DNA of 64,000 nt from Candidatus Beckwithbacteria bacterium (GCA_043803225.1 JAZDKF010000012.1:54143-118142); one strand, 5' to 3'. Positions 29,161 to 58,266 are shown, counted from the first letter of the stretch. Program-made: numbers and translations. The notes: a model not told the origin generated them from the sequence alone.

Positions 29161-29231
29161 AAAAAAATCCTCCATTACTTGGAGGACAATACCTGTCATT
29201 ATACCACAACACCCTATAATGTCAATTTTAG

Positions 29232-29302
29232 AGGCCTGGGCGGGATTTGCACCCACGTAAACGGTTTTGCAGACCGCGCCCTAACTACTCGGACACCAGG
29301 CC
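29232..29302 (-). tRNA. tRNA-Cys (anticodon GCA), candidate
   Basis: Minus-strand 71-nt cloverleaf GGCCTGG-TG-TCCGAGTAGTTAGGG-C-GCGGT-CTGCAAA-ACCGT-TTAC-GTGGG-TGCAAAT-CCCGC-CCAGGCC-T. Perfect 7-bp acceptor stem, 5-bp anticodon stem with U33 and anticodon GCA, U73 discriminator (a Cys identity element). The T-loop has G in place of the usual U55. Confidence 0.5.
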
Positions 29303-29345: not shown

Positions 29346-30218
29346 ATGAAAAGAAAACTTCTGCTTTTAATCTGTTTCCTCACGATAACTGTTGTTTTAA
29401 CTGGTTGTACTTTTCCTGGCCGAAAAAAGTCAGCGCTCTCAGTTTCGACCATACCTCAGGCAACTATTTTCCTTGACGGCGAACATTTAGGCCAAACGCC
29501 CTATGTTAACGAAAAGCTTAAAGCCGGCGACTATGTTCTAAAAATCGTTCCCGAATCCTCCGGTCAGGCCTTAAGTCCCTGGGAAGGTCGGGTCACCTTA
29601 AGCCCGGGTATTTTAACTGTTGTTAATCGGGAACTGGGTTTAACCCAGGATGACTCTTCCGGAGAAATCCTGTCCTTTGAGCCCGGCGCTGATAAAAACT
29701 CTGCTTCGATTTCTGTTGTTACTACCCCCGATGGCACTTCAGTTTATCTGGATGGTGAACCGCGCGGTTTTTCCCCGATTTCTCTTGATAATGTCTCTGA
29801 AGGCGACCACTTGTTATTAATTACCTCTCCGGGATTTAAAGACAAAACCATTAAAGTTAAAACCGTCAAAGGCAATAAATTAATTGCCTCAATTCAGCTT
29901 GCCCGGGCTGTCATTGCTTCGCCGGTTGAAGACACGGCTGATTCTGAAGCTACTCCGGCCGCTTCCCCTAAAGCCAGCCCCAAAGCTTCGCCCACTGCCG
30001 GAGCTAATCTGGTCAAACCCTATGTGGTGATTGACTCACCCGATACTGGTTGGGTTCGGGTTCGCTCAGAAGCTTCCACTGCCGGTGAAGAGTTGGCCAA
30101 GGTCGATCACGGTACCAGTTTTCCTTTAAAAGACGAACAATCTGGTTGGTACGAGATTGAATATGAGACTGGTAAAACCGGCTGGATATCTGGGAAATAC
30201 GCCGAAAAATTCGAATAA
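29346..30218 (+). CDS. lipoprotein with PEGA domains and C-terminal SH3b domain
   Basis: Lipobox 'VVLTGC'. PEGA 'ISVVTTPDGTSVYLDGEPRGFSPISL'. C-terminal 'GWVRVRSEAST...SGWYEIEYETGKTGWISGKY'. Start moved from 29247 to avoid the tRNA. Confidence 0.7.
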   Translation: MKRKLLLLICFLTITVVLTGCTFPGRKKSALSVSTIPQATIFLDGEHLGQTPYVNEKLKAGDYVLKIVPESSGQALSPWEGRVTLSPGILTVVNRELGLTQDDSSGEILSFEPGADKNSASISVVTTPDGTSVYLDGEPRGFSPISLDNVSEGDHLLLITSPGFKDKTIKVKTVKGNKLIASIQLARAVIASPVEDTADSEATPAASPKASPKASPTAGANLVKPYVVIDSPDTGWVRVRSEASTAGEELAKVDHGTSFPLKDEQSGWYEIEYETGKTGWISGKYAEKFE

Positions 30219-30219
30219 C

Positions 30220-31146
30220 TTAACTTAAGTAATACAAAATTCCCACTATCATTAATCCCCAAATAGTGACGGTGATCAGCATCGGCCTGTCTGCAGTTAA
30301 GATTTTTTCCGGCGATTCGCCCTGGTTTTTCTCATAAATCAGCTGCAAATATCGCATCACCCCATAAATTACTACCGGAATTGTTAACATCAGCCATTTT
30401 TCCGAGCGGAAAGTATTGGGTAAGTATGACAGTAAAGTTAAGGCCTTCCCGCTGAAGCTAAACGCCGGGAACATAAAGGCAAACAAAGCATAAGTTAACC
30501 AAGTGGTGTTGGCAAACATCACCGTATACAGATCTAATAGTTTTTCTGGATATCGCCCTAAAACTTTTCTGGAAGCAATTTTACCCTGAAGCAAAGTTAG
30601 TTCGCTTCTGCGCTTGCCGATGGCCAAGAATAAAGCAAAAGAAATAATACATAAGAGCAGCCAAACATTAATGTGCGCCCCGATAATAAACGCTCCGCCA
30701 TAAACTCTCAAGAGAAATCCCAGGGCAATCGCCATTACATCCACAATCGGCCGGTGTTTGAGCACCGCCGTGTATATAAACTGCAACGCTAAATAGGCAA
30801 TCATCACCAAAAACAAGAAATACGATAATGACCAGCCCAGACCTAAACTAATCACCATGCCGCTTAAGCTGAAAAACAGCGCCACTCCAATCGGTAGTTT
30901 CCCTGACGCTATCGGCCTGAACTTTTTAAATGGGTGATTCCGGTCAGAATTAACATCCACAACGTCATTAAAAATATAAACCGAGCTGGTTAAAATCGAA
31001 AAAATCACCCAGGCAGCCGTTACTGTCCACAACTTTTCTCCCCAAAAAAGCCAGCCGGAAAACACCAGTCCCGTATATAAACTTAAATTTTTTAACCACT
31101 GTCGCGGTCTGGCTTCTTTAAAAAGTAGGTAGCCATACTGAGCCAT
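30220..31146 (-). CDS. UbiA-family prenyltransferase (decaprenyl-phosphate phosphoribosyltransferase-like)
   Basis: 'NDVVDVNSDRNHPFKKFRPIASGKL' (NDxxDxxxD plus KRFRPIA-type block), ~8 TM helices. Confidence 0.65.
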   Translation of the reverse strand: MAQYGYLLFKEARPRQWLKNLSLYTGLVFSGWLFWGEKLWTVTAAWVIFSILTSSVYIFNDVVDVNSDRNHPFKKFRPIASGKLPIGVALFFSLSGMVISLGLGWSLSYFLFLVMIAYLALQFIYTAVLKHRPIVDVMAIALGFLLRVYGGAFIIGAHINVWLLLCIISFALFLAIGKRRSELTLLQGKIASRKVLGRYPEKLLDLYTVMFANTTWLTYALFAFMFPAFSFSGKALTLLSYLPNTFRSEKWLMLTIPVVIYGVMRYLQLIYEKNQGESPEKILTADRPMLITVTIWGLMIVGILYYLS

Positions 31147-32183
31147 AACAAACTACCTCCGATCATCACTGCTAATAATATCATTGTATAGAATTTGAGT
31201 TGGCTGTTCAATTTCAATGCCAAAAATCCTAAAATTGCCGATACGATCCAGTAAAACACCGCTATTCTGCGTTTGCCCCAGCCCAAGTCCATTAAGCGAT
31301 GATGCAGATGACCCCGGTCTCCCCAGACAGGCGACTTGCCGCTTAAAACCCGGCGGATAATCGTATAGATTGCGTCCAGCATTGGCACTCCCAGCACTAA
31401 AATTGCCGTAGCTACTTTAGCCCCGGATAAAATTGCCAGCACCGCCAAAAAATATCCGGCCAGCACTCCGCCGCCATATCCGGGCATAATTTTTTGCGGA
31501 TAAAAGTTATAGGGCAAAAATCCCAAGTAAGCTCCGGCTAAAATAAACGCTAACACCAGTACCGGCCATTGAGTTATATCATCAACAAACCGTAAACTTA
31601 AGAAGCCGATGACTACGCCGGCCACCACCACGATTCCTGGCAGTTGGCCGTCTAACCCCTTGGCCCAATTGACAAAATTCATTGCTCCGACAATCCACAC
31701 CAAAGCCATCAAATCAGCCCAAACCCAGATTGTCCGCCACTTCCCCAAGAAAAAAAACGGAATTTGTAGGCCTGACAAATTAATAATCGCTCCGGCTTTA
31801 ATCGGGTTGCTGATATAAGGAATTCCAATTCCCACCCCAACCACCAGCCCGGCTGCAATTAATCCCCAAAACAACCGTTTATATGGGCTGATATTTTTAA
31901 CATCGTCAATCACGCCCACGATTGCCAATAATAATGCCCCGCCAAAAATTCCCAACCAATGCTTATCTACAGGCAAAAACAATAAACTAGCCATAAGCAT
32001 ACTGAAAAATATTACTGCCCCACCCCCTCTGGGTACGGGATATTGATGCACTACTTTTGGATGGTCTTGTTTTTTAGGATCATCCAGCCAACCCATCTTT
32101 TTATAAATGAGAATCACTATCGGCGTTACCCCTAATGAAATAATCATTGCCGTTATTAACGGTTTAATTAATTGAACTAACAT
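31092..32183 (-). CDS. polyprenyl-phosphate HexNAc-1-phosphate transferase (MraY/WecA family)
   Basis: 'VIDDVKNISPYKRL' and 'GDRGHLHHRLMDLGW' family motifs, polytopic. Confidence 0.8.
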   Translation of the reverse strand: MLVQLIKPLITAMIISLGVTPIVILIYKKMGWLDDPKKQDHPKVVHQYPVPRGGGAVIFFSMLMASLLFLPVDKHWLGIFGGALLLAIVGVIDDVKNISPYKRLFWGLIAAGLVVGVGIGIPYISNPIKAGAIINLSGLQIPFFFLGKWRTIWVWADLMALVWIVGAMNFVNWAKGLDGQLPGIVVVAGVVIGFLSLRFVDDITQWPVLVLAFILAGAYLGFLPYNFYPQKIMPGYGGGVLAGYFLAVLAILSGAKVATAILVLGVPMLDAIYTIIRRVLSGKSPVWGDRGHLHHRLMDLGWGKRRIAVFYWIVSAILGFLALKLNSQLKFYTMILLAVMIGGSLLWLSMATYFLKKPDRDSG

Positions 32184-32186
32184 AAT

Positions 32187-32573
32187 CTAGGTAACCAGCC
32201 AAGTAATCTTAATTAAACTTACCAGCCCCATTGCTACTATTAACATTGCCAGCCAAATTAACATTTGGGCTAACAGCCGGTCTTTTTCCAAGACATTTCC
32301 GGCTACCCGGATAGAAATCAGGCTGATTATTAAACTTGAACCAGGCAGCATCCATAAACCCCACTGGTTAATTAATCTGCCTTCGCCATATGCCCGGCTA
32401 AATAACATCGGCACTTCCGGCGGCAGTTTGTTCCACCACCAAGCCAGCCATAAAAAACTCAACCCCAGTCCTAAAAAAATCATCTTCAACCCTACCCTTA
32501 TGTTTGGATTTACTACTAAATTGTCAATTTGTTTTTTGACCATCAATAAACTCAACTGTTCGCTTTTTTTCAT
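32187..32573 (-). CDS. small membrane protein
   Basis: 128 aa, three or four TM helices, within glycan operon. Confidence 0.4.
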   Translation of the reverse strand: MKKSEQLSLLMVKKQIDNLVVNPNIRVGLKMIFLGLGLSFLWLAWWWNKLPPEVPMLFSRAYGEGRLINQWGLWMLPGSSLIISLISIRVAGNVLEKDRLLAQMLIWLAMLIVAMGLVSLIKITWLVT

Positions 32574-33970
32574 ATACTCTCCAATTTTCGGTATACATCT
32601 GCTCGTTCAATCTTTCCCGCAAAGACATAATCAGTTGCCAGCTTTAAATCCAGTTGTTTAAAAGGCCTTTGTTCATAGTCCATGACTATTACTACTCTTG
32701 GCGGTTGTTTGTCCCAGGCAATCATTACTTCTTCGTAACCATTAAAATCAACTATATGATAAGCCACCGTGTAGCGCCCAACCGGCAATCTGTCGGCTAA
32801 CGCATAAACTCCCGGCTCATCTCCCCAAATAAACACCCGATCATCCTTATTCGTGCTTTTTAGTAAATACTCTCCCAGTTTATAACTCTGGTTAACTCGC
32901 TTATCAAAGTAATTGCGATACTCAACTACGTCTTTCTGCCTGGCAATATACTTAATAAAATTTTCATAATAGCTAAATACAGGATAACTCCAAAATTTAA
33001 TTTGCCACCACCAATAACCGCTCAAAAATAATACTCCGGCAATCGCCAGTCTTAAACTCCATTTGCGGCTTTTAATCAACAGGCCTAACAACAGCACTGC
33101 CGGTATTGCCGGCTGGATTAAATAATGTAGATAAGGCCTGCCTGACAATAACGCCCCGAACAGTGCCATTAAAAACCAAATCAGAATTAAATTCGCCCAT
33201 CTGGAAAACTTATACTTTCTTCCCGCCCAAAAAACTAATCCCAAGGCTAAGATCGTAATTCCCAACCTGACCATTAAACCGTTGTTGCTTACTCCCCAGG
33301 AACTTAAGTATCCGATATTTTGCAGCAAAGCCGATCTGACATACCGTTCCAAGCCGCCGACTATTCCAAAGTAGCCGATTGTTATGGCAATCGGCAAACT
33401 GAAACCTAAAATTAACTTCCAAATTCTTTTATCAAAAATACCTTGCCCCGCTAGCCAAAGAATTAAAGCTGCCAGATCAAACGCCGCCGGCACTTTTAGC
33501 AAAAATCCAACTGAAAACAACAATCCTGCCTTAAACCAGCCCTTTCCGCTCGCTGCCAGCAGCATTGCCAGCGTTACCGGCAGCACAATGAAAATCTCTG
33601 CATTTGCCACATTGCCTTCAAAAATCGTCGTTAATCCGATCATTGTCAAAGTTAAACAATAGCTTAAAAATTTATTTTTCGGCCAAATGATTTTAGTTAG
33701 TTTTAAAAATACTGCCACACTCGCCCCAAACCAAACCATTAATATTAATCTGAAATAAAACACATTACCTGCCGCAGCCGCCAGCATGTAGAGCAATGGC
33801 GGTTTGTTATCATGAATATCCCGGTAAAATATCAACCCTTTTCTTAACCCCTGGCCTAAAACCAAATAAATTCCTTCATCGCCATACCAATACGGTTCAA
33901 ATAAAGACGGAATTCTTAACACTGCCACCAGCAGTAACAATAAAATCAAACCTTCATATTTTTTCCACAT
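32570..33970 (-). CDS. GT-C fold membrane glycosyltransferase (ArnT/PMT-like)
   Basis: 466 aa polytopic protein. First-loop acidic motif 'YWYGDEGIY' resembling the PMT/ArnT DE loop. Confidence 0.5.
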   Translation of the reverse strand: MWKKYEGLILLLLLVAVLRIPSLFEPYWYGDEGIYLVLGQGLRKGLIFYRDIHDNKPPLLYMLAAAAGNVFYFRLILMVWFGASVAVFLKLTKIIWPKNKFLSYCLTLTMIGLTTIFEGNVANAEIFIVLPVTLAMLLAASGKGWFKAGLLFSVGFLLKVPAAFDLAALILWLAGQGIFDKRIWKLILGFSLPIAITIGYFGIVGGLERYVRSALLQNIGYLSSWGVSNNGLMVRLGITILALGLVFWAGRKYKFSRWANLILIWFLMALFGALLSGRPYLHYLIQPAIPAVLLLGLLIKSRKWSLRLAIAGVLFLSGYWWWQIKFWSYPVFSYYENFIKYIARQKDVVEYRNYFDKRVNQSYKLGEYLLKSTNKDDRVFIWGDEPGVYALADRLPVGRYTVAYHIVDFNGYEEVMIAWDKQPPRVVIVMDYEQRPFKQLDLKLATDYVFAGKIERADVYRKLESI

Positions 33971-33990
33971 CCCCTTATTTTAGCATTATT

Positions 33991-35478
33991 TTAAACTTTT
34001 TCCGTCACCCGGTATTCCATGTATCTTCCCAGCAGCAGACGGGTATGGGCATCCAGTCCCGGTAAAGCCGTAAAGAAGAACCCGACTATTGGCAGGAGTA
34101 TAAACTCAAATGGGGCTAAAACCTTTCGCCATCTGGCCGTTCCCAGTGGCGCTTTTGGTTTTTGTCTCCAGTCCACGAATATCACCGCTGCCATCGCTAC
34201 TAGCGCTAAAGTTAAAATACTCGAGGAAACCTGGGGCAAAGTCTTGCCGATTATTGTTCTGGAAAAATCCTTATTTAAAAGCGGCGGAATGTTGGCTCCC
34301 AAGGTAATTGCAAACCAGTTAACCGGCCATAACACATGATCTTTTACTACATATAAAGATCTGATGGTTTTTTCTGTAAACGGCATTTTCGGCACTGTTA
34401 ACCACTTGAAAATAATATATGCGTCATCGCTGACTCCCCAGGCCCAGCGCTTGGTTTGTTCGTACTGATTTTTCATCGTCGGCCAAAACCCTTTTGCCTC
34501 GGCCGCATCGCAAAAAGACGGTAAAAATATCGGTTCAACTTCCACTTTGCCTTTAGTGGCATAAAACAGTTTAAAAAACATCCGGTAGTCTTCCGGAATT
34601 ACATCCGTGTCCCAATAGCCGACCTTGTCTACTAATTTTAAGCTGATCGAGTAAGTCGAAAAATTAATCAGCCGGTCTTTTCTAAGCAAAATTCCGGTCT
34701 GCACCACGCTCGACATGCGGTTATATGCCCTGGTTATTGTTGGCAGTTTCCAAATATTATTATAAAACTGAATTGCCGACTGCCAGGTCTTCGTGTAGCG
34801 GTGCGGATCATCTAAAAACTTGAAAGTTAAATAGGCAAAGTATTGCGGGTGGAGCAAAGCGTCCGCATCATTTGAAGTAATCGTAATATAGTCAATATCT
34901 TTCTTTTGCTCATCCACCAGTCTTTTTTTAGCCAATTTTGCCCCCCAGGCAATGTTCGACGACTTACCCTTAACTTCTCCTTCTAGATCAGGGTGAAATT
35001 CCATCATCAAGTTGCCAAAAATTCCTTTAAATTCAGTTTTTAACTTTTTCGCTTTTTCTCGGGCATTTATGCCTTCTCTGGCTTCAAACGCTACTACCAC
35101 GGTTAAATTTTCCTTAGGAAATGTTTGCTTGGATAAGTTTTTCAACGTTCTTCTTAAGGTATTTAGAGGTTCTTGATAGGTTGGAATCACAATAATATGG
35201 TGAACCCGCTTCCAGTCTAAAAAAGACTGCGCTTCGTTGAGCCAATCAAATAACTCTGCTGCCTTGATTCGATAATGGGCAAGTAAAGCCAGAGTTGCTG
35301 TCCATAACGATCGGTAAAGCCAGTAAACATCAAAAGCAATAATATAGTAGGCGACTAAAGCCGGCGCAAAAAAAGCCCCCCAGAATGGAAAAATAATTAA
35401 CGACCAGGAAGTCAGGCCGGGCAAAATCTCCAAAAATCTGATTACTTTTTTCTCGTGTTTTAACAGCCATTTTCTCAC
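33991..35478 (-). CDS. processive family-2 glycosyltransferase (cellulose/chitin-synthase-like)
   Basis: 'SNDADALL' (DxD), 'IPEDYRMFF' (ED), 'EQTKRWAWG' (QxxRW), flanking TM helices. Confidence 0.7.
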   Translation of the reverse strand: MRKWLLKHEKKVIRFLEILPGLTSWSLIIFPFWGAFFAPALVAYYIIAFDVYWLYRSLWTATLALLAHYRIKAAELFDWLNEAQSFLDWKRVHHIIVIPTYQEPLNTLRRTLKNLSKQTFPKENLTVVVAFEAREGINAREKAKKLKTEFKGIFGNLMMEFHPDLEGEVKGKSSNIAWGAKLAKKRLVDEQKKDIDYITITSNDADALLHPQYFAYLTFKFLDDPHRYTKTWQSAIQFYNNIWKLPTITRAYNRMSSVVQTGILLRKDRLINFSTYSISLKLVDKVGYWDTDVIPEDYRMFFKLFYATKGKVEVEPIFLPSFCDAAEAKGFWPTMKNQYEQTKRWAWGVSDDAYIIFKWLTVPKMPFTEKTIRSLYVVKDHVLWPVNWFAITLGANIPPLLNKDFSRTIIGKTLPQVSSSILTLALVAMAAVIFVDWRQKPKAPLGTARWRKVLAPFEFILLPIVGFFFTALPGLDAHTRLLLGRYMEYRVTEKV

Positions 35479-35489
35479 AAGGTACGTCC

Positions 35490-36287
35490 TTATTGGAATT
35501 TAAATAATCTTTCCGCACTCTTGGTAGTCTCAGTTTCAATTTTTGCTATTGAAACTTTTTTCAGCCTTGCCAAGCACTGAGCCACGATCTTAACACTTAT
35601 AGGCTCATTTCTCAAATCTCTCTTCGGCGCCGGTGATAACCAGGGCGCATCTGTTTCTAGCAACATCCGCTCTAGAGGTGTCAATTTAGCTAAAATCTTC
35701 ACTTCCTGGCTGTAGGTTACATTTCCATCAATGCCAATATAAAAACCCATCTCTAAAATCTTGCTTAAAAGTTTTTTACTCCCGGAGATGCAATGGAATA
35801 CGCCTTTAGGATACTGGCCGTCACTGGTGCAAAAGTGCTTAATCGTATCCAGGGTCTCTTCGCCTGTTTCGCGGTTGTGGATAATCATCGCTAGCTTAAG
35901 TTTTTTTGCCAGTTGAATCTGTTGACCAAAGAGTTTTTTTTGAGCTGTTTTCACCTCCGGAGAAATCTCTTTCTTCTCATACTTGCTTTTTTGATAAACA
36001 TGAAAGTCCAAACCGCACTCGCCAATTGCTGCCACTTTTTCCTCTTTTGCCAGCTTCTCCAGTTTTTTCCAATTAATCTCGCTTAAACCGTGGTGAGGAT
36101 GAACACCTACTGCTGCCCATAGATTTTTATGTTTTTTTGCCAACTTAACTGCCCTGGCGCTTGTTTCTAAATCCGCCCCTACCACAATCATTTTGGTTAC
36201 TCCGGCCTTAACTGCTCGATCTGCCACCCTTTGCCAGTCAGCTTCAAAAGCCTTAAAATTCAAATGGCAATGCGTATCAATATACAT
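35490..36287 (-). CDS. tatD: TatD family metal-dependent DNase/hydrolase
   Basis: 'MYIDTHCHLNF' plus conserved His/Glu/Asp positions. metG-tatD synteny. Confidence 0.85.
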   Translation of the reverse strand: MYIDTHCHLNFKAFEADWQRVADRAVKAGVTKMIVVGADLETSARAVKLAKKHKNLWAAVGVHPHHGLSEINWKKLEKLAKEEKVAAIGECGLDFHVYQKSKYEKKEISPEVKTAQKKLFGQQIQLAKKLKLAMIIHNRETGEETLDTIKHFCTSDGQYPKGVFHCISGSKKLLSKILEMGFYIGIDGNVTYSQEVKILAKLTPLERMLLETDAPWLSPAPKRDLRNEPISVKIVAQCLARLKKVSIAKIETETTKSAERLFKFQ

Positions 36288-36297: not shown

Positions 36298-37713
36298 TTA
36301 TAGTCTCGGGAACAACGATTCCTTTATCTTAATTGTATCGCCGCCAAAAATCTTGGCAATTTTTTCTGCTGTTTGGGGCAAAAATATCTGCAGCTGCCAG
36401 TTAAAGGCCAGTAATTTTTTTACATAACCGACTAGCTTATCTTTTCTCTCATCTGCACTTTGTTTCCAGGGTTCATCCTGAGAAATCTGCAGATCCAATT
36501 CCCTGATTTCTTCCCATAATTTAATTAAAGCTTGATTAAACTCATATTTTCCCAGCTCGCCGCTGACAGTAATTTTTTTCTCAAAATCTTTAATCCCCGC
36601 CAAACCGTCTTTTTCTGCCATCTTCGCCACCCGGGAAACCACATTCCCCAAACCATTAGCCAAATCCGCGTTATATACCTCTTTAAATCGCTCATGAGTA
36701 AAATCTCCGTCTGACTGGGTCGGAATCTCTTTTAATAAAAAATACCTGACCGCGTCAGCACCGTACTGTTTAACAATTTTTTCAGGATTAATCGTGTTGC
36801 CTAAAGACTTTGCCATTTTTTGGCCATTGGCAGTAATATAGCCGTGGACTAAAACTGCTGCTGGAAGGGGGAGTTTCGCTGACAGCAGCATTGCCGGCCA
36901 ATAAACTGTGTGAAACCGGTAAATTCCCTTGCCGATCACATGTACTTGCGCCGGCCACCACTTTTTCCATAAGTTCAAATCATAATTCCAACCCACCGCC
37001 GTCATATACACCGTTAAGGCATCAAACCACACATACATTATCTGGGTCGGATCATCTGGCACGGGAATACCCCAATTGCCTAAGCGGACTGCTGGCCGGG
37101 AAACTGAAAAATCTTTCAGGCCTTGTTTAATAAATCCCAAAGTTTCGTTCTTTCTGATTTCAGGAAATACTTTTAGTTCATCCTTTTCAATTAACTCTTC
37201 CAGTTGCTTTTGATATTTGGATAATTTAAAAAAGTAATTTTCTTCTTCGATCAATTCCGGCACTCGGTTGTGTTCAGGGCATTTTCCTTTAACCAACTCG
37301 TCCTTTGTATAAAACTGTTCACAGCCGACACAGTAAAGCCCTTGGTACTTTTTCTTGTAAATATCTCCGTTTTTAACACACCGATTCCACAACTCGATTA
37401 CTCCCGGCCAATGATATTTTTTATCTGTTGCTCTCCGCCAAACATCAAACTCTACCCCAAGCTGTTCAGCGTGTTTAATAAAGGCTTGAGTATTTTTATC
37501 CGCCAGTTCTTGAGACTCTAGCTTTTCTTCTTTTGCCGCCTCTAAAATTTTTTGTCCGTTTTCGTCTGATCCGGAAACGCAAAATACCTGCTTACCTTCA
37601 AGTTTTTGCCACCGCCTGATTACATCGGTTTGAATAAACTCAAGAGAGTGGCCAAGGTGCGGAAATCCGTTTACATATGGAATCGCCGCCGTTACATAAA
37701 ATTTATCTGCCAT
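36298..37713 (-). CDS. metG: methionyl-tRNA synthetase (minimal core form)
   Basis: 'PYVNGFPHLGHS' HIGH region, zinc knuckle 'CVGCEQFYTKDELVKGKCPEH', 'KMAKSLGN' KMSKS. 471 aa. Confidence 0.85.
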   Translation of the reverse strand: MADKFYVTAAIPYVNGFPHLGHSLEFIQTDVIRRWQKLEGKQVFCVSGSDENGQKILEAAKEEKLESQELADKNTQAFIKHAEQLGVEFDVWRRATDKKYHWPGVIELWNRCVKNGDIYKKKYQGLYCVGCEQFYTKDELVKGKCPEHNRVPELIEEENYFFKLSKYQKQLEELIEKDELKVFPEIRKNETLGFIKQGLKDFSVSRPAVRLGNWGIPVPDDPTQIMYVWFDALTVYMTAVGWNYDLNLWKKWWPAQVHVIGKGIYRFHTVYWPAMLLSAKLPLPAAVLVHGYITANGQKMAKSLGNTINPEKIVKQYGADAVRYFLLKEIPTQSDGDFTHERFKEVYNADLANGLGNVVSRVAKMAEKDGLAGIKDFEKKITVSGELGKYEFNQALIKLWEEIRELDLQISQDEPWKQSADERKDKLVGYVKKLLAFNWQLQIFLPQTAEKIAKIFGGDTIKIKESLFPRL

Positions 37714-37731: not shown

Positions 37732-38367
37732 TTATCCTAACTTTTCTGCCACTAAAAATAAACTTCCGGCAGCATAGGGTTTGGGGCTTTTATAATACTT
37801 CATCTTTAATCCGGGAAAACCATCTTTTGCTAAAACTTGAAATAACTTCTGTCTTGAACTGTCATCTTCAATAAAACTCAATATCAACAATCCGCCATCA
37901 GTTAATAATCGGCCGGCCTGTTGAATTAAATTTGTAAAATCTTGTTTTTCCAATCCAGATTCATTAAAAATATTAAACCAGGTAATTAATCCTAATTTCT
38001 CGTCACCCACATCTTTTTGAATTTGGGATAAAGCATCATTTCTCTGCTGTCGAATTATTTTTACCGCAGTTGATTTTTGTGCCATTGCCTCTAAAACCGG
38101 ATCAATTAAATCATCATGATGGCCTCCTGCGTCTATTGGCTCCGCCGCAAATAACACTTTTGGATTATAGTTTAAAAAACAAGGAATTTCTGCTCCGTAT
38201 TCTACATCCAAACAAGCAATTCCCAATTTTTCTATAAAATTATTAATTTTTTGGCAAGAATAACCGGTCCCATTTAATAAATTTTCAAAACTCCATTTCA
38301 GCTTTGCTCCATTAGTTTCTGTTTTAGCAATTTTGTCTTGGACAGTTCCTGGAATCAATTCAGTCAT
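37732..38367 (-). CDS. hypothetical protein (211 aa)
   Basis: Long ORF in metG operon. Weak methyltransferase-like 'LLTDGGLLILSF' but no glycine-rich SAM motif. Confidence 0.45.
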   Translation of the reverse strand: MTELIPGTVQDKIAKTETNGAKLKWSFENLLNGTGYSCQKINNFIEKLGIACLDVEYGAEIPCFLNYNPKVLFAAEPIDAGGHHDDLIDPVLEAMAQKSTAVKIIRQQRNDALSQIQKDVGDEKLGLITWFNIFNESGLEKQDFTNLIQQAGRLLTDGGLLILSFIEDDSSRQKLFQVLAKDGFPGLKMKYYKSPKPYAAGSLFLVAEKLG

Positions 38368-44022: not shown

Positions 44023-44219
44023 TATTTATCTGCTTTAAAACCAATTTTAATATGGGAACCGTCGCAAAATGGCTTGTTCTTCGAAGCGCCGCAACGGCAC
44101 AACCAGACTGTTTCATCTCCCTTAACCGTTTGCTCATTGCCTTGAGCATCTTTGATTTCTTCCGGACCGTACACTTTATACGGTCCGTTTTTTATTGCTG
44201 TTATTTTGGCCATACCCAC
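44022..44219 (-). CDS. CDGSH iron-sulfur domain protein
   Basis: 65 aa, 'CRCGASKNKPFCDGSH'. Confidence 0.75.
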   Translation of the reverse strand: MGMAKITAIKNGPYKVYGPEEIKDAQGNEQTVKGDETVWLCRCGASKNKPFCDGSHIKIGFKADK

Positions 44220-44998
44220 TCCTTTATAAACAATTTTTTAACTGGTTGTCTATATTCTACCTCTCTTCCGCCGAAACTTTTTTTAAACCGGGTGAATCCG
44301 GGCCAGAGCTTATCGTCAATCCCATCAAAATCAAACAGTCTGCACTTAAGTTTTTTCGCCAATCTTATTGCCTTCCACGCTAATCTGCTGGGTACCATTT
44401 TTTTTCTGCCTTCCTGACTGCTGGCATTATGAGAATAATAGGCAACCTGATTATGAATTAAAACTATCAGTCCGCCGCCTTCTGCCATTAGCAGCCAGGC
44501 CTTTCCCCCAAACGATTTAAGCAAACTCTTTAATTGTTTAAAGTTTAATCCCCAGAATTTTTGTTTTTTACAGTTTTGCCGGTAAATCTTAAAAAAATCT
44601 TTCAGTTGTTTATCCGAAACTTTATCTCCCCGAATCATCTTTACTTTTCCTGAATACTTTCTTAAGTTATACCTGGTTTTGTAATGCATTTCTTTTAATA
44701 GCTGATTCTCGCTCTTTGTTAAATCCAGCCAAATAGTTTTTGTTGGTAGCATCGGTGTTTTATCTTCTTTAAACCCCCACCGGCCGTAGTTGAAATTATC
44801 ATCAATGGCTGGTTCAATCTTTACCAATACCGCCCGGTATTTTTTTACCAACAAATCTAAATCGTCGATTTTTTTCTGCCTCTGAATCTTAATAAAACTG
44901 ATTCCTAGCAGTTTTTTAATAAATGCCCCCTCATCCACCAGCCAGCCCAAACTTTTCATCCACAGCTCGTATTCTTTAGCTTGTCTTAAATCGCTCAT
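44201..44998 (-). CDS. FemAB-like / GNAT-fold peptidyltransferase family protein
   Basis: 265 aa, similarity in architecture to the C-half of FemX-type proteins. Adjacent to a clearer FemAB gene. Confidence 0.45.
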   Translation of the reverse strand: MSDLRQAKEYELWMKSLGWLVDEGAFIKKLLGISFIKIQRQKKIDDLDLLVKKYRAVLVKIEPAIDDNFNYGRWGFKEDKTPMLPTKTIWLDLTKSENQLLKEMHYKTRYNLRKYSGKVKMIRGDKVSDKQLKDFFKIYRQNCKKQKFWGLNFKQLKSLLKSFGGKAWLLMAEGGGLIVLIHNQVAYYSHNASSQEGRKKMVPSRLAWKAIRLAKKLKCRLFDFDGIDDKLWPGFTRFKKSFGGREVEYRQPVKKLFIKEWVWPK

Positions 44999-46098
44999 TT
45001 AGATTCAAATGCTCTTGCCAGATTGTCTATTGTTTGGCTTAGTCCGGTTTTCACTCGGACAGCTCCGGTCCTAGCCTTCAGCCACTTCCACCGCGCTTCT
45101 TCTAAGATTCTTAAAATCCGGTACTGCCCCGGCTGCAGTACTAGGTCATAACTGCCGACAAACTCCATCAAGGTTGCTCCGTAGCCTTGTTTAAACCGAT
45201 GAAATCCATACCAAGGATCATTTTTGTTTGGATTAGGCCCTAACGCTCCCCACATATCTAATTCAGTGCAATTTAAACTTTTCCCCAATTTAATTACTTC
45301 CCACATTAACAAATTTGGCGCCATCAGTTCTTTAAGCTCCCGGGTCGAGGCGCCGTATGGATAATAGATTTTTTTATTAAACACAAAACATAAAAAAGCT
45401 GACAAGGTTTTACCCTCAAACTCAGCCCTTAATAGTTGAACCATTCCCACCGGCCTTAGCTGCTGCCACATCTTTTTAAAGTAATCCGGAGTATGGCTAT
45501 AAAATCCCTGGCGTTTAATTGTTTCGTCAAACAGCAGTTTTAAAAATAACTCAAAACTCGCCGCGCTGTTGTCTAATTTAACCTTGACGCCTTTTTTTTC
45601 TGCCAGCCGCAAGTTATATCTGGTTTTGGAATGCATTTTAGCTAATAAATCTGCCTCTGCCGGTGTTAGATCAAGAGAAAAGGTGTATTTTGTAAACAGC
45701 GGTCGGCCTTTCTGGCAGCCCCTTTTAAGTAAAAACTCTTCTATTTGGATCCAGGCGCTGGATTGAATCTGATCTTTCTTAACCGCCGCGCTGATATTCG
45801 GCTCCAACTTAATATAAACGCAGTTATTTTCTTTTCCGATCTGTTTTAAAGCTTCCAGCTGGACCTCATCAGGCATCGGTCCTTTAGGAAAGTAGCCCAA
45901 AGTCCAACCGAGTTTTGGCACCCGGTGAATCGTCAGTTGCATTGGCATCACCAGCTTTTGGCCTTCAAATACCCCTTTGCGGATTACCTTTATTCCGGTT
46001 AACTCCCTAAACTCACCCCACTCATAGGTTTGCAGTGGGTGGCCGGCAACCTGATTAAACCTTGCTTTATCATTAAGAACGACTTCTCTAATAATCAT
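44995..46098 (-). CDS. FemAB family aminoacyl-tRNA-dependent peptidoglycan peptidyltransferase
   Basis: 367 aa. N-terminal 'QTYEWGEF', twin GNAT-like halves with a ~100-aa spacing typical of FemX/FemA. Confidence 0.6.
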   Translation of the reverse strand: MIIREVVLNDKARFNQVAGHPLQTYEWGEFRELTGIKVIRKGVFEGQKLVMPMQLTIHRVPKLGWTLGYFPKGPMPDEVQLEALKQIGKENNCVYIKLEPNISAAVKKDQIQSSAWIQIEEFLLKRGCQKGRPLFTKYTFSLDLTPAEADLLAKMHSKTRYNLRLAEKKGVKVKLDNSAASFELFLKLLFDETIKRQGFYSHTPDYFKKMWQQLRPVGMVQLLRAEFEGKTLSAFLCFVFNKKIYYPYGASTRELKELMAPNLLMWEVIKLGKSLNCTELDMWGALGPNPNKNDPWYGFHRFKQGYGATLMEFVGSYDLVLQPGQYRILRILEEARWKWLKARTGAVRVKTGLSQTIDNLARAFESK

Positions 46099-47871: not shown

Positions 47872-48906
47872 ATGCTTTCCGCCGTTAAACGCCGTTTCTA
47901 TAAATATCTTCTGCCTTTTCGCCCGTTAATCTATCTGGCAGTTATCGGTCTGGTCTGCTTAATTTTAGTTTTAATCATTCCTAAACTGGCCGCTTCTTTT
48001 AAAAAAATTATTCAACTTTCTACGATTACCCGGCTTGACTCTTTCCGCAATCGGACCAATATTCTGCTTCTTGGCGCCAGTGGCGGAACTCACCCCGGAG
48101 CTGATTTAACTGACAGCATCATGTTAATTTCAGTTAATCTTTCTACCTCAGATACGGTCTTAATTTCTCTGCCTCGGGACATTTGGGTTGAATCTTTATC
48201 TGCCAAACTTAATACTGCCTATCATTTTGGCGAAACCAAGCAGCCCGGCGGCGGCCTGATTATGGCTAAAGCCGCGGTTGCCGAAATCATCAACCAGCCG
48301 GTCCATTATGCTGCACTCTTGGATTTTTCCGGTTTTGAAACCGCCATCGACGTCCTTGGTGGTTTGGATCTGAATGTGCCCCATGGCTTTATCGACGCCA
48401 AGTATCCGCTTCCTGGCCAGGAAAATGCTCCCGATGAAACCGCCCGCTATGAAATCCTGCAGTTTCATTCTGGCTTTCAACACTTTGACGGTTCCATGGC
48501 CTTAAAATATGTTCGTTCCCGCCAGTCAGAAGGTGAAGAAGGGACTGATTTTGCCCGCAGCCAGCGTCAGCAATTGGTTTTGTTGAGTTTTAAAGATAAA
48601 GTTTTGTCTCTAAAAACTTTGCTTAATCCGTTTAAACTTAAAGCCCTCTATCAAGCTTTTAAAGCCGCTGTTACCACCGATCTTGAACCAAAAATCTATC
48701 CGGATTTAGTTAAGCTGGTTTTTAAAATTAAACCTGATTCGCTTCGTACAGGCATCATTGACCAGGGCAGTGACAACGAAGAAATTCCCGCCTTGCTCTA
48801 CAACCCGCCGGCCGAACAATACGGCCAATGGGTTTTATTGCCGCTTAATAACAACTGGCAGGCTGTTTATGATTACCTTGAAGAAATTATCTACCAAAAT
48901 CAATAG
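47872..48906 (+). CDS. LytR-CpsA-Psr (LCP) family cell-wall glycopolymer transferase
   Basis: N-terminal TM. 'ILLLGASGG...DSIMLISVN...ISLPRDIWV' LCP core. Confidence 0.8.
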   Translation: MLSAVKRRFYKYLLPFRPLIYLAVIGLVCLILVLIIPKLAASFKKIIQLSTITRLDSFRNRTNILLLGASGGTHPGADLTDSIMLISVNLSTSDTVLISLPRDIWVESLSAKLNTAYHFGETKQPGGGLIMAKAAVAEIINQPVHYAALLDFSGFETAIDVLGGLDLNVPHGFIDAKYPLPGQENAPDETARYEILQFHSGFQHFDGSMALKYVRSRQSEGEEGTDFARSQRQQLVLLSFKDKVLSLKTLLNPFKLKALYQAFKAAVTTDLEPKIYPDLVKLVFKIKPDSLRTGIIDQGSDNEEIPALLYNPPAEQYGQWVLLPLNNNWQAVYDYLEEIIYQNQ

Positions 48907-50122
48907 GCCAATACTAGTTCTAACCACTGTATTAGTTATATCGATTCTCTACTGGCAAGCACTTAATCCCTTATGGCGCGGCCATTTAGAAATTGATGTT
49001 TGGAGTTGGTTTCTGCGAATGGAATATTTTTTTAAACACAACTCTTTTACAGGTCTAGACGGCAATGAAATTCTTCCCACGACGCTTATTTATATTTTTA
49101 TCCCTCGCTTGTTAGCTGGCTGGAAAAATCTTTCTTATATTTCTTATCTTTCAGCTGCGACGTTAGTTAATTTATTGGTAATTTTTCTCACCCTCGTTGT
49201 AGTGAAAAAGAAATCATCTTCACTTCAATCTTGGCTATTTTTAATCTTAGTCTTAGCCATTGGCCCAATCCTTCTTTTTCGCTTTGACACAATCGTCGCC
49301 CTCTTCGTCCTTTTAAGCCTATATTTGTTTTCAAAAAAAAGAATAATCTCATCTGCTATTTTCTTAAGTTTGGCCACCTCCATGAAAATATATCCGATTA
49401 TTTTATTACCCTACCTGGGATTAATTCTTATGTATCAAAAAAGTTTTAAACGCATTTTAATTTACTTATTTTATTTTCTCCTATTTATGGCCTTGCCGAT
49501 AATAATATTTTTCCTTCTCGGTGGAAATCTTAAGCAAATTTTATCTGCTATGGAATTTCACGGTCTTAAATATGTTAGTATCGAAAGTCTGCCGGGAAGT
49601 TTATTAACCGCCTCTTCGCTGATTTTTAACCATCGCCCTCCAGATTTATTAGGGGGTTATGGAATTTGGGGAATTACTACGCCGCTGATTAAAACTCTTG
49701 GTCTAAAAGTTTTTAATTATTTTTGGGTTTTACCAGTTAGTTTTTTTTATCTCTTTATCATCAAAAACAGAAAATATCTAGCTAAACTTTATCCTTCAGT
49801 TTGTTTCTCATTGGTTTTATTCTTTCTAGTCTTTTCTAAAAATCTACACCCTCAATACATTTGGTGGTTTCTATCCATTTTTCCCTTTATTAAAATTACT
49901 GCCTTCAACCGCTATAAATATTTATTTATGTTTATTTTGTTGGTATTTATCAGTATTTTCAACCAATTAGTTTATCCGTTGTTTTACACTCAGTTTATAG
50001 ACGATTTTTTCCAGCATAATCGTTACTATGAAGTTTTTTACGCCCTTTTAATTAGAAACTTTTTAATTGTTTGTCTATTAATAGTTAGTTTGAAAAATGA
50101 ATTTCCTAAAAAAACACTTTAA
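48869..50122 (+). CDS. polytopic membrane protein, GT-C-like (DUF2029/GT87-like) glycosyltransferase, putative
   Basis: At least 10 TM helices, low-GC. Start uncertain (the track ORF begins at 48758 inside the LCP gene; 48869 ATG chosen). Confidence 0.45.
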   Translation: MITLKKLSTKINRPILVLTTVLVISILYWQALNPLWRGHLEIDVWSWFLRMEYFFKHNSFTGLDGNEILPTTLIYIFIPRLLAGWKNLSYISYLSAATLVNLLVIFLTLVVVKKKSSSLQSWLFLILVLAIGPILLFRFDTIVALFVLLSLYLFSKKRIISSAIFLSLATSMKIYPIILLPYLGLILMYQKSFKRILIYLFYFLLFMALPIIIFFLLGGNLKQILSAMEFHGLKYVSIESLPGSLLTASSLIFNHRPPDLLGGYGIWGITTPLIKTLGLKVFNYFWVLPVSFFYLFIIKNRKYLAKLYPSVCFSLVLFFLVFSKNLHPQYIWWFLSIFPFIKITAFNRYKYLFMFILLVFISIFNQLVYPLFYTQFIDDFFQHNRYYEVFYALLIRNFLIVCLLIVSLKNEFPKKTL

Positions 50123-52501: not shown

Positions 52502-52506
52502 GTAAA

Positions 52507-53211
52507 ATGAAACAATTTAAACAATTATCAATATTTTTTCCTGCGTTCAACGAAGAGTTTGTGATTCAGAAAACAATCGCTGCTGCAATCAAGGTCGCCC
52601 GGGAAGTTGCCGAAACTTATGAGATTATCGTGATTAACGACGGTTCAACTGACAGAACCGGGGAGATGATTGAAGCCATGATCAGCCGCAATCCTAGCAT
52701 TAGACTTATCTCTCACCCTATTAATCAGGGTTATGGCGCGGCGATAAAATCTGGCCTTGCGGCCGTCCGTTATCCGTGGGTAATTGCCTGTGATTCTGAC
52801 GGCCAGTTTGATTTAACCGAAATAAAAAAATTTACTCCCTATATGAACAACCACGATTTAATTATTGGTTATCGTTTAAAAAGGAGCGACAGCCGCTATC
52901 GTCGCTTCATGGCATTTATTCTGAAACTGGTTAACTTAATCTTGTTTAAAATAAATTTTAAAGATATTGATTGCGGCTTTAAGTTGTTTAAAAAAGAAGT
53001 GATTGCCGCGGTGGGCCCCCTAGCTACTAATAGTGCCATTACTGTTACCGAATTTATTGCTAAATCCCTTCATCAGGGTTTTAAGATTAAAGAAATTGGC
53101 GTCCACCATCATAGCCGTTCTGGTGGTCAACAAACCGGAGGTAAGCCTTCAGTGGTTATTAAAGGCGCCAAAGAAGCGATTAGGCTTTGGTTAAAACAAC
53201 AGCGCCCCTAA
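52507..53211 (+). CDS. polyprenol-phosphate mannose/glucose synthase (Dpm1-like GT2)
   Basis: 'LSIFFPAFNEE...IIVINDGSTDRTGE...IACDSDGQFD' GT2 DXD architecture of Dpm1/GtrB type. Confidence 0.8.
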   Translation: MKQFKQLSIFFPAFNEEFVIQKTIAAAIKVAREVAETYEIIVINDGSTDRTGEMIEAMISRNPSIRLISHPINQGYGAAIKSGLAAVRYPWVIACDSDGQFDLTEIKKFTPYMNNHDLIIGYRLKRSDSRYRRFMAFILKLVNLILFKINFKDIDCGFKLFKKEVIAAVGPLATNSAITVTEFIAKSLHQGFKIKEIGVHHHSRSGGQQTGGKPSVVIKGAKEAIRLWLKQQRP

Positions 53212-58229: not shown

Positions 58230-58266
58230 GGTCTGTATTCTATATATTTGTTATACTCGCGTCAAG

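Follow-up and report, generated by a model that had tools for sequence, protein, structure and literature searches.

The window, a 64-kb stretch of DNA from a Candidatus Beckwithbacteria bacterium, carries on its minus strand, at positions 30220-35478, the five open reading frames of a membrane-enzyme set, each of which was found by an ORF check where it had been claimed (Table 1). The four enzymes named in the earlier note are all present, although it had missed both the 128-aa partner protein (sTM) and a conserved, convergently encoded PEGA-SH3 lipoprotein. The five genes come after metG-tatD, with intergenic gaps of no more than 20 nt or overlaps: the start of sTM and the stop of GT-C share 4 nt, sTM is separated from GT4 by 3 nt, and the GT4 and UbiA reading frames overlap by 55 nt. 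The same-strand run extends from a 108-aa ORF at 39080 to UbiA with gaps of -55 to +20 nt (10-11 nt for metG and tatD), and also contains a TrpR-like gene. This spacing suggests co-transcription of the run with metG-tatD; a promoter and terminator scan was uninformative. A second GtrB-type plus GT-C cluster and the pilus genes pilN/pilO also occur within the window, and a conserved GroEL/M23 block neighbours the locus. The lipoprotein has a probable true start at M34, a lipobox (LTGC) and an STPA-rich stretch at residues 224-253, and might, speculatively, serve as an acceptor or a wall-associated partner.

Table 1 Features of the membrane-enzyme locus and of the surrounding window
Feature	Position	Strand	Basis
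SDR epimerase domain fused to DUF4012	8447-11542		
PEGA-PEGA-SH3 lipoprotein, S/T/P/A-rich linker	29346-30218	+	PEGA 1e-18, SH3_3 8e-11
UbiA-family PPPRS/DPPRS-type polyprenyl-phosphate 5-phosphoribosyltransferase (predicted), 308 aa	30220-31146	-	DPPRS models, 8j8j
Divergent PNPT (GT4, WecA/MraY superfamily), 363 aa	31092-32183	-	PF00953
Small 3-TM membrane protein (sTM), 128 aa	32187-32573	-	Similarity to N-terminus of GT4 relatives
GT-C-fold glycosyltransferase, 466 aa	32570-33970	-	AF2 model, fold matches
GT2 synthase-like protein, membrane-integrated, 495 aa	33991-35478	-	PF13632, fold, motifs
tatD	35490-36287	-	PF01026 5e-74
metG (heads same-strand run with tatD)	36298-37713	-	TIGR00398 5e-130
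LCP transferase	47872-48906		
Further polyprenyl-phosphate-sugar synthase	52474-53211		

The UbiA-family protein had been proposed to be of the DPPR synthase type; the peptide quoted with that proposal, NDVVDVNSDRNHPFKKFRPIA, is indeed found in this ORF. The protein matches PF01040 (1e-18) and scores 224, 194 and 139 bits on three NCBIfam DPPRS models (NF008977, 224.4 bits, just under the equivalog cut-off of 234; NF008978, 193.7 bits), far above its scores on the prenyltransferase models TIGR01474 (ubiA, 27.7 bits) and TIGR01473 (cyoE, 26.6 bits). No clustering with MenA, UbiA or heme-O enzymes was seen in this profile comparison, which upholds the proposal. Against the PDB, 8j8j (Rv3806c) was matched with an E-value of 1e-35 and the archaeal UbiA 4tq3 with 5e-5, and identity is 30% to the Rhodococcus DPPRS and 34% to that of a Lactococcus plasmid. 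Rv3806c, unlike the prenyltransferases, contacts PRPP through R22, K28, Y70, N73, D77, K87, R90, Q135, Y138, K143 and Y157 (PMC10994848). Alignment to 8j8j places R13, K19, Y57, N60, D64, K74, R77, Q122, Y125, K130 and F144 at these positions, all 11 of which are thus conserved with one Tyr to Phe exchange (Y157 to F144), and most of these residues are invariant among 19 CPR homologs. Phe at the Y157 position also occurs in some mycobacteria. Judged by its sequence, the protein is an Rv3806c-type polyprenyl-phosphate phosphoribosyltransferase and not a MenA, UbiA or heme-O enzyme.

The 466-aa protein has no match in Pfam, and its homologs carry PMT_2/PF27757. Its AF2 model (pLDDT 89.7) gave GT-C enzymes as the only structural matches, confirming that a GT-C enzyme is present as suggested. 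These include AftA, AftB, AftD and EmbA, while the protein O-mannosyltransferases Pmt4 and Pmt1/2 as well as STT3 are among the best; arabinofuranosyltransferases are no closer than mannosyl or Ara4N transferases. The model shows the polytopic GT-C fold, in which TM1 is followed by an extracytoplasmic loop containing conserved acidic residues, D31/E32 being invariant in this first outer loop. Of the CAZy families for pentofuranose transfer (GT136, GT85 AftA, GT53 Emb, GT89 AftB), the sequence comparison covered Rhodococcus AftA and an AftB-like protein, and no match was found to these or to the GT-C-like proteins adjacent to DPPRS in Lactococcus and Haloterrigena. The protein is predicted to be an extracytoplasmic user of a polyprenyl-phosphate-sugar donor.

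The GT4 protein, previously described as WecA-like, belongs to the PF00953 superfamily (3e-25, 89.6 bits) at that level only, and is neither a WecA nor a MraY of the canonical kind: its scores fall far under the curated cut-offs (69.7 against 326 bits for WecA TIGR02380; 53.3 against 192 bits for MraY TIGR00445). It shares with these enzymes some 10-11 TM helices, the DD motif (D93/D94), NxxN (N169/N172), the second Asp of DGxDG (D178) and a WecA-like HxHH (HLHH, 292-295). Across 79 GT4 orthologs, the two Asp and the last two His show no variation (79/79), while the other retained motif residues show almost none. However, Y236 replaces the Asp of VFMGD (WecA D217, EcMraY D267, AaMraY D265), and the position is Y, W or F in 79/79 Microgenomates orthologs; K175 replaces WecA D156, the first Asp of DGxDG. 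The (V)FMGD Asp binds Mg2+ and is regarded as catalytic in MraY (PMC5039524), so that the sugar-phosphate transferase activity of a GT4 lacking it is uncertain. Its motifs mark GT4 as an atypical form of the family, in which a catalytic residue that is normally essential is missing. One UbiA-linked member of the clade, P0367, still has this Asp, which suggests that the ancestral GT4 function was probably catalytic. A further departure from WecA/MraY is the dedicated 3-TM partner. No family was matched by sTM (DUF1648 at E 0.03 only), but it resembles the first ~120 aa of GT4 relatives that are 475-523 aa long (phmmer E 3e-9 to 1e-4), such as that of locus L090. It is therefore a putative partner module of GT4, to which it is fused in relatives.

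The GT2 protein matches PF13632 (4e-9) and reached no curated family (27 bits on the PgaC model, where the cut-off is 422). Its AF2 model (pLDDT 88.3) starts with a pair of TM helices, followed by a GT-A domain and, at the C-terminus, by TM and interface helices, an arrangement common to class I hyaluronan synthases (HAS) and BcsA. The best Foldseek match was the Chlorella virus hyaluronan synthase (CvHAS; E 5e-10, TM 0.58), followed by Xenopus HAS1 and BcsA (E 4e-8), with the non-processive PcManGT at rank 10. D204/D206 (DxD), E296/D297 (ED) and Q341/R344/W345 of the QxxRW motif (QTKRW, 341-345) are likewise shared with these synthases and are invariant in 40 homologs, although identity to them is only 12-14%. 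The QxxRW motif and synthase-like character that had been noted thus hold; the protein is closer to class I HAS than to BcsA, however, and has no PilZ domain. We describe it as a hyaluronan/cellulose-synthase-like membrane synthase, which may be processive and may extrude its product.

Conservation was counted over GTDB species-representative loci, with denominators that vary by gene. GT4 adjoins UbiA in 75/76 loci, the ~3 kb upstream of UbiA include GT-C in 54/66, GT2 is near UbiA in 51/61, and a gene for the PEGA-SH3 lipoprotein runs convergently to UbiA in 63/74; GT4, GT-C, GT2 and UbiA are thus conserved as a unit. PNPT relatives that are canonical and do not have the variant motifs are found away from UbiA, whereas members of the variant clade adjoin it. 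GT2, GT4 and UbiA are all more conserved than metG (median identity across Microgenomates is 60% for GT2 and 45% for metG). In L090 the four cassette genes are still clustered despite an inverted GT-C, loss of tatD and fusion of sTM to GT4. Some loci have no GT2 or GT-C beside GT4-UbiA, and in 5 Daviesbacteria-like loci (3 of them labelled Daviesbacteria) there is no GT-C, and its place is taken by another GT2 (~30% identity). The shared strand run with metG-tatD, correctly described before, is less conserved than this core, with metG and tatD upstream in 38/53 and 44/58 loci. metG-tatD is a common housekeeping pair elsewhere, and the linkage therefore says little about regulation. CPR genomes are compact, which makes adjacency weaker evidence than in larger genomes. 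Across Microgenomates the cassette is a conserved trait, and its expression is probably constitutive.

We searched the 64-kb window and 83 related loci (1.36 Mb) with tblastn for the remaining parts of a donor pathway. No DprE1 or DprE2 (Rhodococcus queries), no phosphatase of the PAP2, HAD or PHP type, and no GtrA or MATE flippase was found in the window (cassette included) or in the 83 loci, and Pfam families for phosphatases and flippases are absent among the window proteins. Ribofuranose is accordingly the default and safer assignment for the sugar, there being no epimerase in this search space. A phosphatase and flippase could be encoded elsewhere or be of an unrecognised type.

Taken together, the set most likely makes a lipid-linked ribose-type donor, the sugar of which goes into building or decorating a surface glycan on the outside of the cell. 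On strong homology, UbiA would move 5-phosphoribosyl from PRPP to polyprenyl phosphate at the cytoplasmic face, yielding polyprenyl-phosphate-ribofuranose-5-phosphate. Proteins encoded elsewhere would then take off the 5-phosphate and flip the lipid-linked sugar to the outside, the sugar most likely staying ribofuranose, as no DprE1/E2 was found in the loci searched. Fold and synteny suggest that GT-C, with D31/E32 in its outer loop, would transfer the pentofuranose to an extracytoplasmic acceptor. As no phosphatase, flippase or epimerase was detected, these second and third steps have missing parts. GT4 and its 3-TM partner, whose translation is coupled to that of UbiA, may load a sugar-phosphate onto polyprenyl phosphate and so prime the acceptor glycan, which the LCP transferase could attach to peptidoglycan. 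The HAS-like GT2, by its fold and motifs, would polymerise, and probably extrude, a backbone polysaccharide from nucleotide sugars. We lean modestly towards this model as a whole, that is, an envelope-glycan module centred on a lipid-linked pentofuranose donor, in which a system like the three-component pentofuranose ones is combined with an enzyme that initiates a glycan and with a synthase. Besides the missing parts and the uncertain activity of GT4, several observations weigh against it: GT-C has no sequence similarity to the GT-Cs found with DPPRS elsewhere and no special closeness in fold to arabinofuranosyltransferases, the further polyprenyl-phosphate-sugar synthase in the window could equally feed GT-C, and the GT2 is tied to the set through synteny only and belongs to a fold family with non-processive members such as PcManGT.

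The genes could instead be independent neighbours in a streamlined genome, GT2 being a stand-alone exopolysaccharide synthase and the PNPT priming an unrelated polymer, with at most UbiA and GT-C forming a pathway. The housekeeping genes metG, tatD and the TrpR-like gene in the same run, the loci without GT2 or GT-C by GT4-UbiA and the exchanged GT2 of the Daviesbacteria-like loci, which also lack GT-C, fit such an arrangement. Yet GT4 and UbiA have overlapping reading frames and adjoin almost without exception (75/76), the four genes remain clustered in L090 after inversion and fusion, and canonical PNPT relatives occur in other contexts without UbiA; we regard independence as unlikely. Somewhat less likely still is a protein acceptor, with GT-C O-glycosylating a surface protein with pentofuranose in the manner of TfpW on Pseudomonas aeruginosa pilin. 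Candidates would be the conserved neighbouring PEGA-SH3 lipoprotein, whose linker is rich in S/T/P, or else a type IV pilin or S-layer protein. The convergent lipoprotein (63/74 loci) with an STPA-rich linker, the rank of Pmt4, Pmt1/2 and STT3 among the GT-C fold matches, pilN/pilO in the window, and the employment of a DPPRS homolog by the pilin Araf system (PMC11127046) are consistent with this reading. It does not account for the PNPT and the GT2 synthase, however; nothing links GT-C to any particular acceptor, and the PEGA synteny could equally reflect the neighbouring GroEL/M23 block.

Loss of both the VFMGD Asp (Y/W/F in 79/79) and the D156 equivalent, an obligate adjacency and overlap with UbiA, and the lack of a recognisable flippase or phosphatase in the cassette raise the idea that GT4 and its 3-TM partner have been repurposed to serve the lipid-linked phosphoribose that UbiA makes, as its missing flippase or phosphatase or as a scaffold, or otherwise act on it. 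We consider this distinctly improbable: the invariant DD, both Asn, D178 and the WecA-type HLHH argue for kept substrate binding and catalysis, the UbiA-linked P0367 still has the Asp, and archaeal and eukaryal GlcNAc-1-P transferases do not conserve the D156 position either (PMC5222938). The least probable reading, to which we give little credence, is a mycobacterial-type D-arabinan, in which polyprenyl-phosphate-ribose would be epimerised to a DPA-like donor for a GT-C arabinofuranosyltransferase and a WecA-primed, LCP-attached polymer. It draws on the DPPRS-type enzyme, on AftA, AftB, AftD and EmbA among the GT-C fold matches, on the PNPT and LCP transferase in the window, and on the SDR epimerase domain fused to DUF4012. 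The arabinan analogy offered in the earlier note has partial support: the DPPRS-type UbiA and a GT-C are there, but the defining DprE1/DprE2 was found neither in the window nor in the 83 loci.

We compared the cassette, read as a module for a lipid-linked pentofuranose donor, with known systems. The mycobacterial DPA/arabinan pathway (Rv3806c, Rv3807c, DprE1/E2, Rv3789, Aft/Emb, WecA, Lcp1) resembles it in the Rv3806c-type enzyme with its PRPP residues kept, a GT-C using a polyprenyl-phosphate-sugar, and a PNPT initiator and LCP ligase in the region. In contrast, homologs of DprE1/E2, of the PAP2 phosphatase and of the GtrA-type Rv3789 were not found in the window and 83 loci, the GT-C here, at 466 aa, is small and does not have Aft/Emb as its closest matches, the PNPT departs from the canonical form, and arabinogalactan synthesis has nothing that corresponds to the synthase-type GT2. 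The Gram-positive systems for rhamnose-rich wall polysaccharides (GacI/GacJ/GacK/GacL and CsdA/CflA/CsdB; PMC9574508) also make a lipid-phosphate-sugar inside the cell that is used outside by a non-conserved GT-C, with a WecA-type primer and LCP attachment. GacJ offers a precedent for a 3-TM activator partnering a membrane transferase, and CflA for a flippase encoded in another locus (PMC9574508), as may be the case here. The donor synthase of the cassette is, however, of the UbiA/PRPP type and not the GT-A/UDP-sugar type, and its 3-TM partner goes with the PNPT (fused in relatives), not with the donor synthase.

The closest known kind, and a better comparator than arabinan, is the three-component pentofuranose glycosylation system, represented in Citrobacter youngae O1/O2 by the PPPRS ORF15, the MATE flippase ORF14 and the GT136 GT-C ORF12 (Kelly et al. 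2024, PMC11127046). Common to both are a UbiA-family PRPP-dependent enzyme encoded beside a GT-C, N/D-rich loop residues, a catalytic acidic residue right after GT-C TM1, and ribofuranose as the default sugar without an epimerase. The cassette differs in having neither a fused or adjacent phosphoribose phosphatase nor a MATE/GtrA flippase, in a GT-C without detectable sequence similarity to those tested, in its near-obligate association with a variant PNPT and 3-TM partner and, usually, a HAS-like GT2, and in its location in a housekeeping operon-like run, not an O-antigen locus. The pathway logic of a lipid-linked pentofuranose donor and a GT-C has already been published (PMC11127046); new here are the conservation of the cassette across Microgenomates, the 128-aa protein that is fused to GT4 in relatives, and a GT4 clade without the Mg2+-binding Asp of VFMGD. 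Both a Lactococcus plasmid and a haloarchaeon likewise carry a DPPRS together with a GT-C-like protein, a phosphatase and a flippase, accompanied by an epimerase or a nearby LCP gene.

The window is a chromosomal segment from a Candidatus Beckwithbacteria bacterium (Patescibacteria/CPR), with dnaA and dnaN at 3174-5905, in which ten minus-strand genes form a run spanning 39080 to 30220, spaced by -55 to +20 nt. The last five form the cassette, comprising a GT2 glycosyltransferase, a 466-aa GT-C protein, a 128-aa membrane protein, a 363-aa protein of the WecA/MraY (PNPT) superfamily (here GT4) and a 308-aa UbiA-family protein (here UbiA). The coordinates of an earlier note and the UbiA peptide it quoted are right, and its family calls for UbiA, the WecA-like superfamily, GT2, TatD and MetG are backed by Pfam and NCBIfam. 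The gene spacing suggests that the run is a single transcript; scanning it for consensus terminators and promoters gave nothing above chance. The 211-aa ORF has no Pfam match and no counterpart in 83 related loci, and could have been inserted in this lineage into a run that is otherwise conserved.

Features of the run and of other envelope-related genes, in window coordinates
Feature	Position	Strand	Assignment or place
108-aa membrane ORF	from 39080	-	first gene of run
TrpR-like gene		-	second gene of run
211-aa ORF	37732-38367	-	between TrpR-like gene and metG
metG		-	MetG (NCBIfam/Pfam); ahead of tatD
tatD		-	TatD (NCBIfam/Pfam); directly ahead of GT2
GT2	33991-35478	-	Glyco_trans_2_3 (Pfam)
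466-aa protein	32570-33970	-	GT-C by predicted fold
128-aa protein	32187-32573	-	three predicted TM helices
GT4	31092-32183	-	Glycos_transf_4
UbiA	30220-31146	-	UbiA (Pfam/NCBIfam)
Epimerase-DUF4012 fusion	8447-11542	+	1031 aa
FemAB genes, two adjacent	44201-46098	-	FemAB-family peptidyltransferases
LCP protein	47872-48906	+	LCP family glycopolymer transferase
GT-C	48758-50122	+	GT87/ALG3-like
411-aa protein	50097-51332	+	uncharacterised
GT-C	51329-52501	+	PMT-like
245-aa GT2	52474-53211	+	like PgfS, PpgS, ArnC (polyprenyl-P-sugar synthases)
MurJ	58207-59901		MurJ
Glycoside hydrolase	61667-63043	-	GH39 family

UbiA scores 224, 194 and 139 bits on the NCBIfam models for decaprenyl-phosphate phosphoribosyltransferase (DPPRS), the highest lying 10 bits below that model's equivalog cut-off, against 22-28 bits on the models for 4-hydroxybenzoate octaprenyltransferase, heme O synthase and chlorophyll synthase. 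This profile comparison clearly bears out the earlier proposal of a DPPR-synthase type. Against the PDB, UbiA matches the Mycobacterium tuberculosis Rv3806c structure (8j8j) with E 1e-35 and an archaeal UbiA with 5e-5, and it is 30% identical to the Rhodococcus DPPRS and 34% to the Lactococcus plasmid DPPRS. The paper on the Rv3806c structure lists the residues that contact PRPP, in a phosphoribose site not common to prenyltransferases (PMC10994848). When aligned with 8j8j, all have a counterpart in the window protein (Rv3806c/window: R22/R13, K28/K19, Y70/Y57, N73/N60, D77/D64, K87/K74, R90/R77, Q135/Q122, Y138/Y125, K143/K130 and Y157/F144). Phe at the last position is found in mycobacteria too, and most contact residues are invariant in 19 CPR homologs. 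On the strength of the family scores, the 8j8j match, the retained contact residues and the identities, we strongly infer that UbiA transfers phosphoribosyl from PRPP to polyprenyl phosphate. Family scores and active-site residues rule out a quinone, heme-O or chlorophyll prenyltransferase.

The earlier description of GT4 as WecA-like holds in part. The protein keeps the WecA-type HLHH motif, D93/D94, N169/N172 and D178, but its WecA-model score is just 70 bits against a cut-off of 326, and its (V)FMGD motif has lost the Asp. When GT4 was aligned with WecA and MraY of E. coli and with its 78 orthologs in related loci, Tyr236 fell at the position of this residue, which is described as catalytic and Mg2+-proximal (PMC5039524; WecA D217, EcMraY D267, AaMraY D265), and the position is Tyr, Trp or Phe in 79/79 sequences. 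WecA D156 is replaced by Lys175 (Lys in 74/79), at a position that archaeal and eukaryal enzymes do not conserve either (PMC5222938); the missing VFMGD Asp, by contrast, is out of the ordinary. When 1.84 billion representative proteins were searched exhaustively, 494 clusters came up at E<=1e-30; among the best 150, the 60 with an aromatic residue at the VFMGD Asp position rank closest and canonical D/D forms rank more distant. Context look-ups found UbiA adjoining variant-clade members in two related loci, L090 and L093, and beside none of the more canonical relatives. One UbiA-linked member retains the Asp, so its loss is derived within the clade. GT4 is ruled out as the cell's MraY, scoring 53 bits on that model (cut-off 192) and carrying HLHH instead of PxHHH. 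A PNPT variant without the metal-binding VFMGD Asp is of interest to enzymology: antibiotics target MraY/WecA-family enzymes, and accounts of their mechanism usually centre on that residue.

No family could be assigned to the 128-aa protein, for which three TM helices are predicted and DUF1648 gave only a sub-threshold match (E 0.03). Relatives of GT4 that are 475-523 aa long carry an N-terminal extension that matches it (phmmer E 3e-9 to 1e-4), and in L090, where the cassette is rearranged, one 493-aa gene stands in place of the two. The fusion argues for the protein being a subunit of the GT4 enzyme. The arrangement recalls that of GacI, a lipid-sugar synthase activated by the 3-TM protein GacJ (PMC9574508); in both, a membrane enzyme has a 3-TM partner, although here the partner goes with GT4. 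A GtrA/SMR flippase was rejected in view of three rather than four TM helices, the weak DUF1648 match and the lack of any GtrA match.

The 466-aa protein has no Pfam match of its own, while its homologs, annotated as ArnT-family or GT39, match PMT_2 and PF27757. Its AlphaFold2 model (40 homologs, pLDDT 89.7) matches GT-C enzymes only (Foldseek: STT3, ArnT at TM 0.56, AftA, DPY19, ALG9, PglB), in agreement with the GT-C enzyme noted earlier. Residues E25, D31, E32 and Y35 are invariant and follow TM1, where GT-C catalytic acids are sited. Sequence kinship to the DPPRS-linked GT-Cs of Lactococcus or Haloterrigena was rejected (hhalign and BLAST negative). The GT2 model (pLDDT 88.3) is nearest Chlorella virus hyaluronan synthase (HAS; E 5e-10, TM 0.58), followed by Xenopus HAS1 and BcsA, and D204/D206, E296/D297 and Q341/R344/W345 are invariant in the homolog alignment. 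Fold and motifs thus identify a synthase-like membrane GT2, as the earlier QxxRW call had it, but with an architecture nearer class I HAS than BcsA. The enzyme may be processive, but a non-processive archaeal mannosyltransferase has the same fold. The C-terminal tail GRYxEYRVTEKV (residues 484-495; window 33991-34030) is invariant or nearly so in 40 homologs yet is modelled with pLDDT < 50; this combination suggests a conserved peptide for interaction or gating.

When one genome of each GTDB species was scanned by pattern, 203 loci with UbiA relatives were recovered, the best 80 coming from Beckwith-, Davies-, Woese-, Collier-, Shapiro- and Chisholmbacteria. Counting only loci with the flank available, GT4 lies upstream of UbiA in 75/76 and the PEGA-SH3 lipoprotein gene is convergent to it in 63/74; its neighbours include GT-C (54/66), GT2 (51/61), tatD (44/58) and metG (38/53). 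Median identities are 60% for GT2, 55% for GT4 and 54% for UbiA, versus 45% for metG. The four glycan genes remain together in L090, where GT-C is inverted and tatD absent. Neighbour counts, identities and the intact L090 cluster support a functional unit with a core of GT4 (plus the 128-aa protein) and UbiA, joined by GT-C and GT2. The common housekeeping pair metG-tatD is a looser association. TatD was rejected as the absent phosphatase, being a full-length canonical TatD (TIGR00010, 240 bits) that is gone from the L090 cassette. To our knowledge, almost nothing is experimentally established about the envelope glycans of CPR/Patescibacteria, which are attached to or dependent on other cells. 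The conservation of GT2, GT4 and UbiA above methionyl-tRNA synthetase and the prediction that PRPP is turned into a lipid-linked donor of the ribofuranose type suggest a surface polymer or glycoconjugate that is core to Microgenomates. The enzymes lend themselves directly to testing, since assays for this chemistry are available.

The closest known kind of system is the three-component pentofuranose system, in which a polyprenyl-phosphate phosphoribosyltransferase (PPPRS) makes Und-P-ribofuranose, which is exported by a flippase and serves a GT-C as donor for adding the sugar to a glycan outside; epimerases, when present, convert ribofuranose to Xylf or Araf (Kelly et al. 2024, PMC11127046). 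The cassette shares the PPPRS and GT-C core but has no linked phosphatase or flippase, and is near-obligately coupled to a variant PNPT with a small subunit and usually to a HAS-like synthase. A literature search found no papers tying DPPRS-type enzymes to Patescibacteria. We propose that PRPP-derived polyprenyl-P-ribofuranose would be synthesised intracellularly and consumed outside by GT-C, that the PNPT module would prime a polyprenyl-PP-linked acceptor, which the LCP transferase could attach to peptidoglycan, and that GT2 would supply the polymer backbone. This overall logic is slightly favoured by the balance of the evidence; we are far surer of the UbiA activity taken by itself, and less sure of what GT4 and GT2 do.

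Among other readings, independent modules that merely neighbour one another are unlikely given the support for a functional unit. Protein O-glycosylation of the often convergent PEGA-SH3 lipoprotein, or of pilins, is somewhat less probable again. We give little credence to a GT4 repurposed for a non-catalytic role, for which the lost VFMGD Asp speaks and against which the kept motifs do. Just as speculative is a new PNPT-fold functional class without canonical Mg2+/Asp chemistry, in which the GT4 clade and its fused or adjacent 3-TM protein would act with the phosphoribosyltransferase (e.g. using, flipping or dephosphorylating polyprenyl-P-ribose-5-phosphate), and with the HAS-like synthase and GT-C build a Microgenomates-specific ribose(-phosphate) wall polymer; if true, this would be a route described in no cultured bacterium.

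The arabinan-type donor logic suggested earlier is the least probable. Queries were DprE1, DprE2, an Rv3807c-like PAP2 phosphatase and an Rv3789-like GtrA protein from a Rhodococcus record, the HAD phosphatase and GtrA protein of the Lactococcus plasmid DPPRS locus, and the epimerase and PHP phosphatase of a haloarchaeal locus. The DprE1, DprE2, PAP2, HAD and both GtrA queries had no tblastn match at E<=1e-3 in the window plus 83 loci (1.36 Mb), and no query matched the window. Isolated weak matches to the PHP query (one related locus) and the epimerase query (two) lie at unconserved positions outside the cassette. Pfam detected no FAD_binding_4 oxidase, PAP2, HAD or GtrA domain in most sizeable window ORFs. 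As DprE1 and DprE2 were not found, arabinose as the sugar is unsupported in the window and 83 loci. The GT-C fold shows no preference for arabinofuranosyltransferases over mannosyl or Ara4N transferases.

Five Daviesbacteria-like loci (L038, L059, L065, L073 and L082, three titled Daviesbacteria) have no GT-C and carry a roughly 30%-identical GT2 directly upstream of the 128-aa protein/GT4-UbiA genes, which points to a variant architecture. L090 encodes a CYTH-domain protein (triphosphate-tunnel metalloenzyme family; 10440-11096) directly after UbiA, a possible phosphohydrolase partner, and a Wzy_C (O-antigen ligase/polymerase-like) protein 2 kb downstream (12660-14024); the window proteins that were scanned gave no CYTH match. 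Among the GTDB representative MAG records with the cassette (L004-L083), many bear the title 'uncultured Pseudomonadales/Gammaproteobacteria bacterium', but their gene content and their proteins, 50-90% identical to those of Beckwithbacteria, suggest that the names are placeholders or wrong. For the plus-strand PEGA-SH3 ORF, the TTG start that was listed mechanically (29247) overlaps a minus-strand tRNA-Cys (29231-29302); the true start is likely Met34 (about 29346), giving a lipoprotein signal peptide with lipobox LTGC.

The window also encodes MurJ, FemAB-family and GH39 proteins. The only epimerase-like gene seen in it fuses an NAD-dependent sugar epimerase/dehydratase (residues 36-335) to DUF4012 (residues 613-748) and is a conceivable sugar-donor modifier. 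A second envelope-glycan cluster (47872-53211, plus strand) has the appearance of a classical GtrB-type three-component system, and it and the cassette may have acceptors or a flippase in common.
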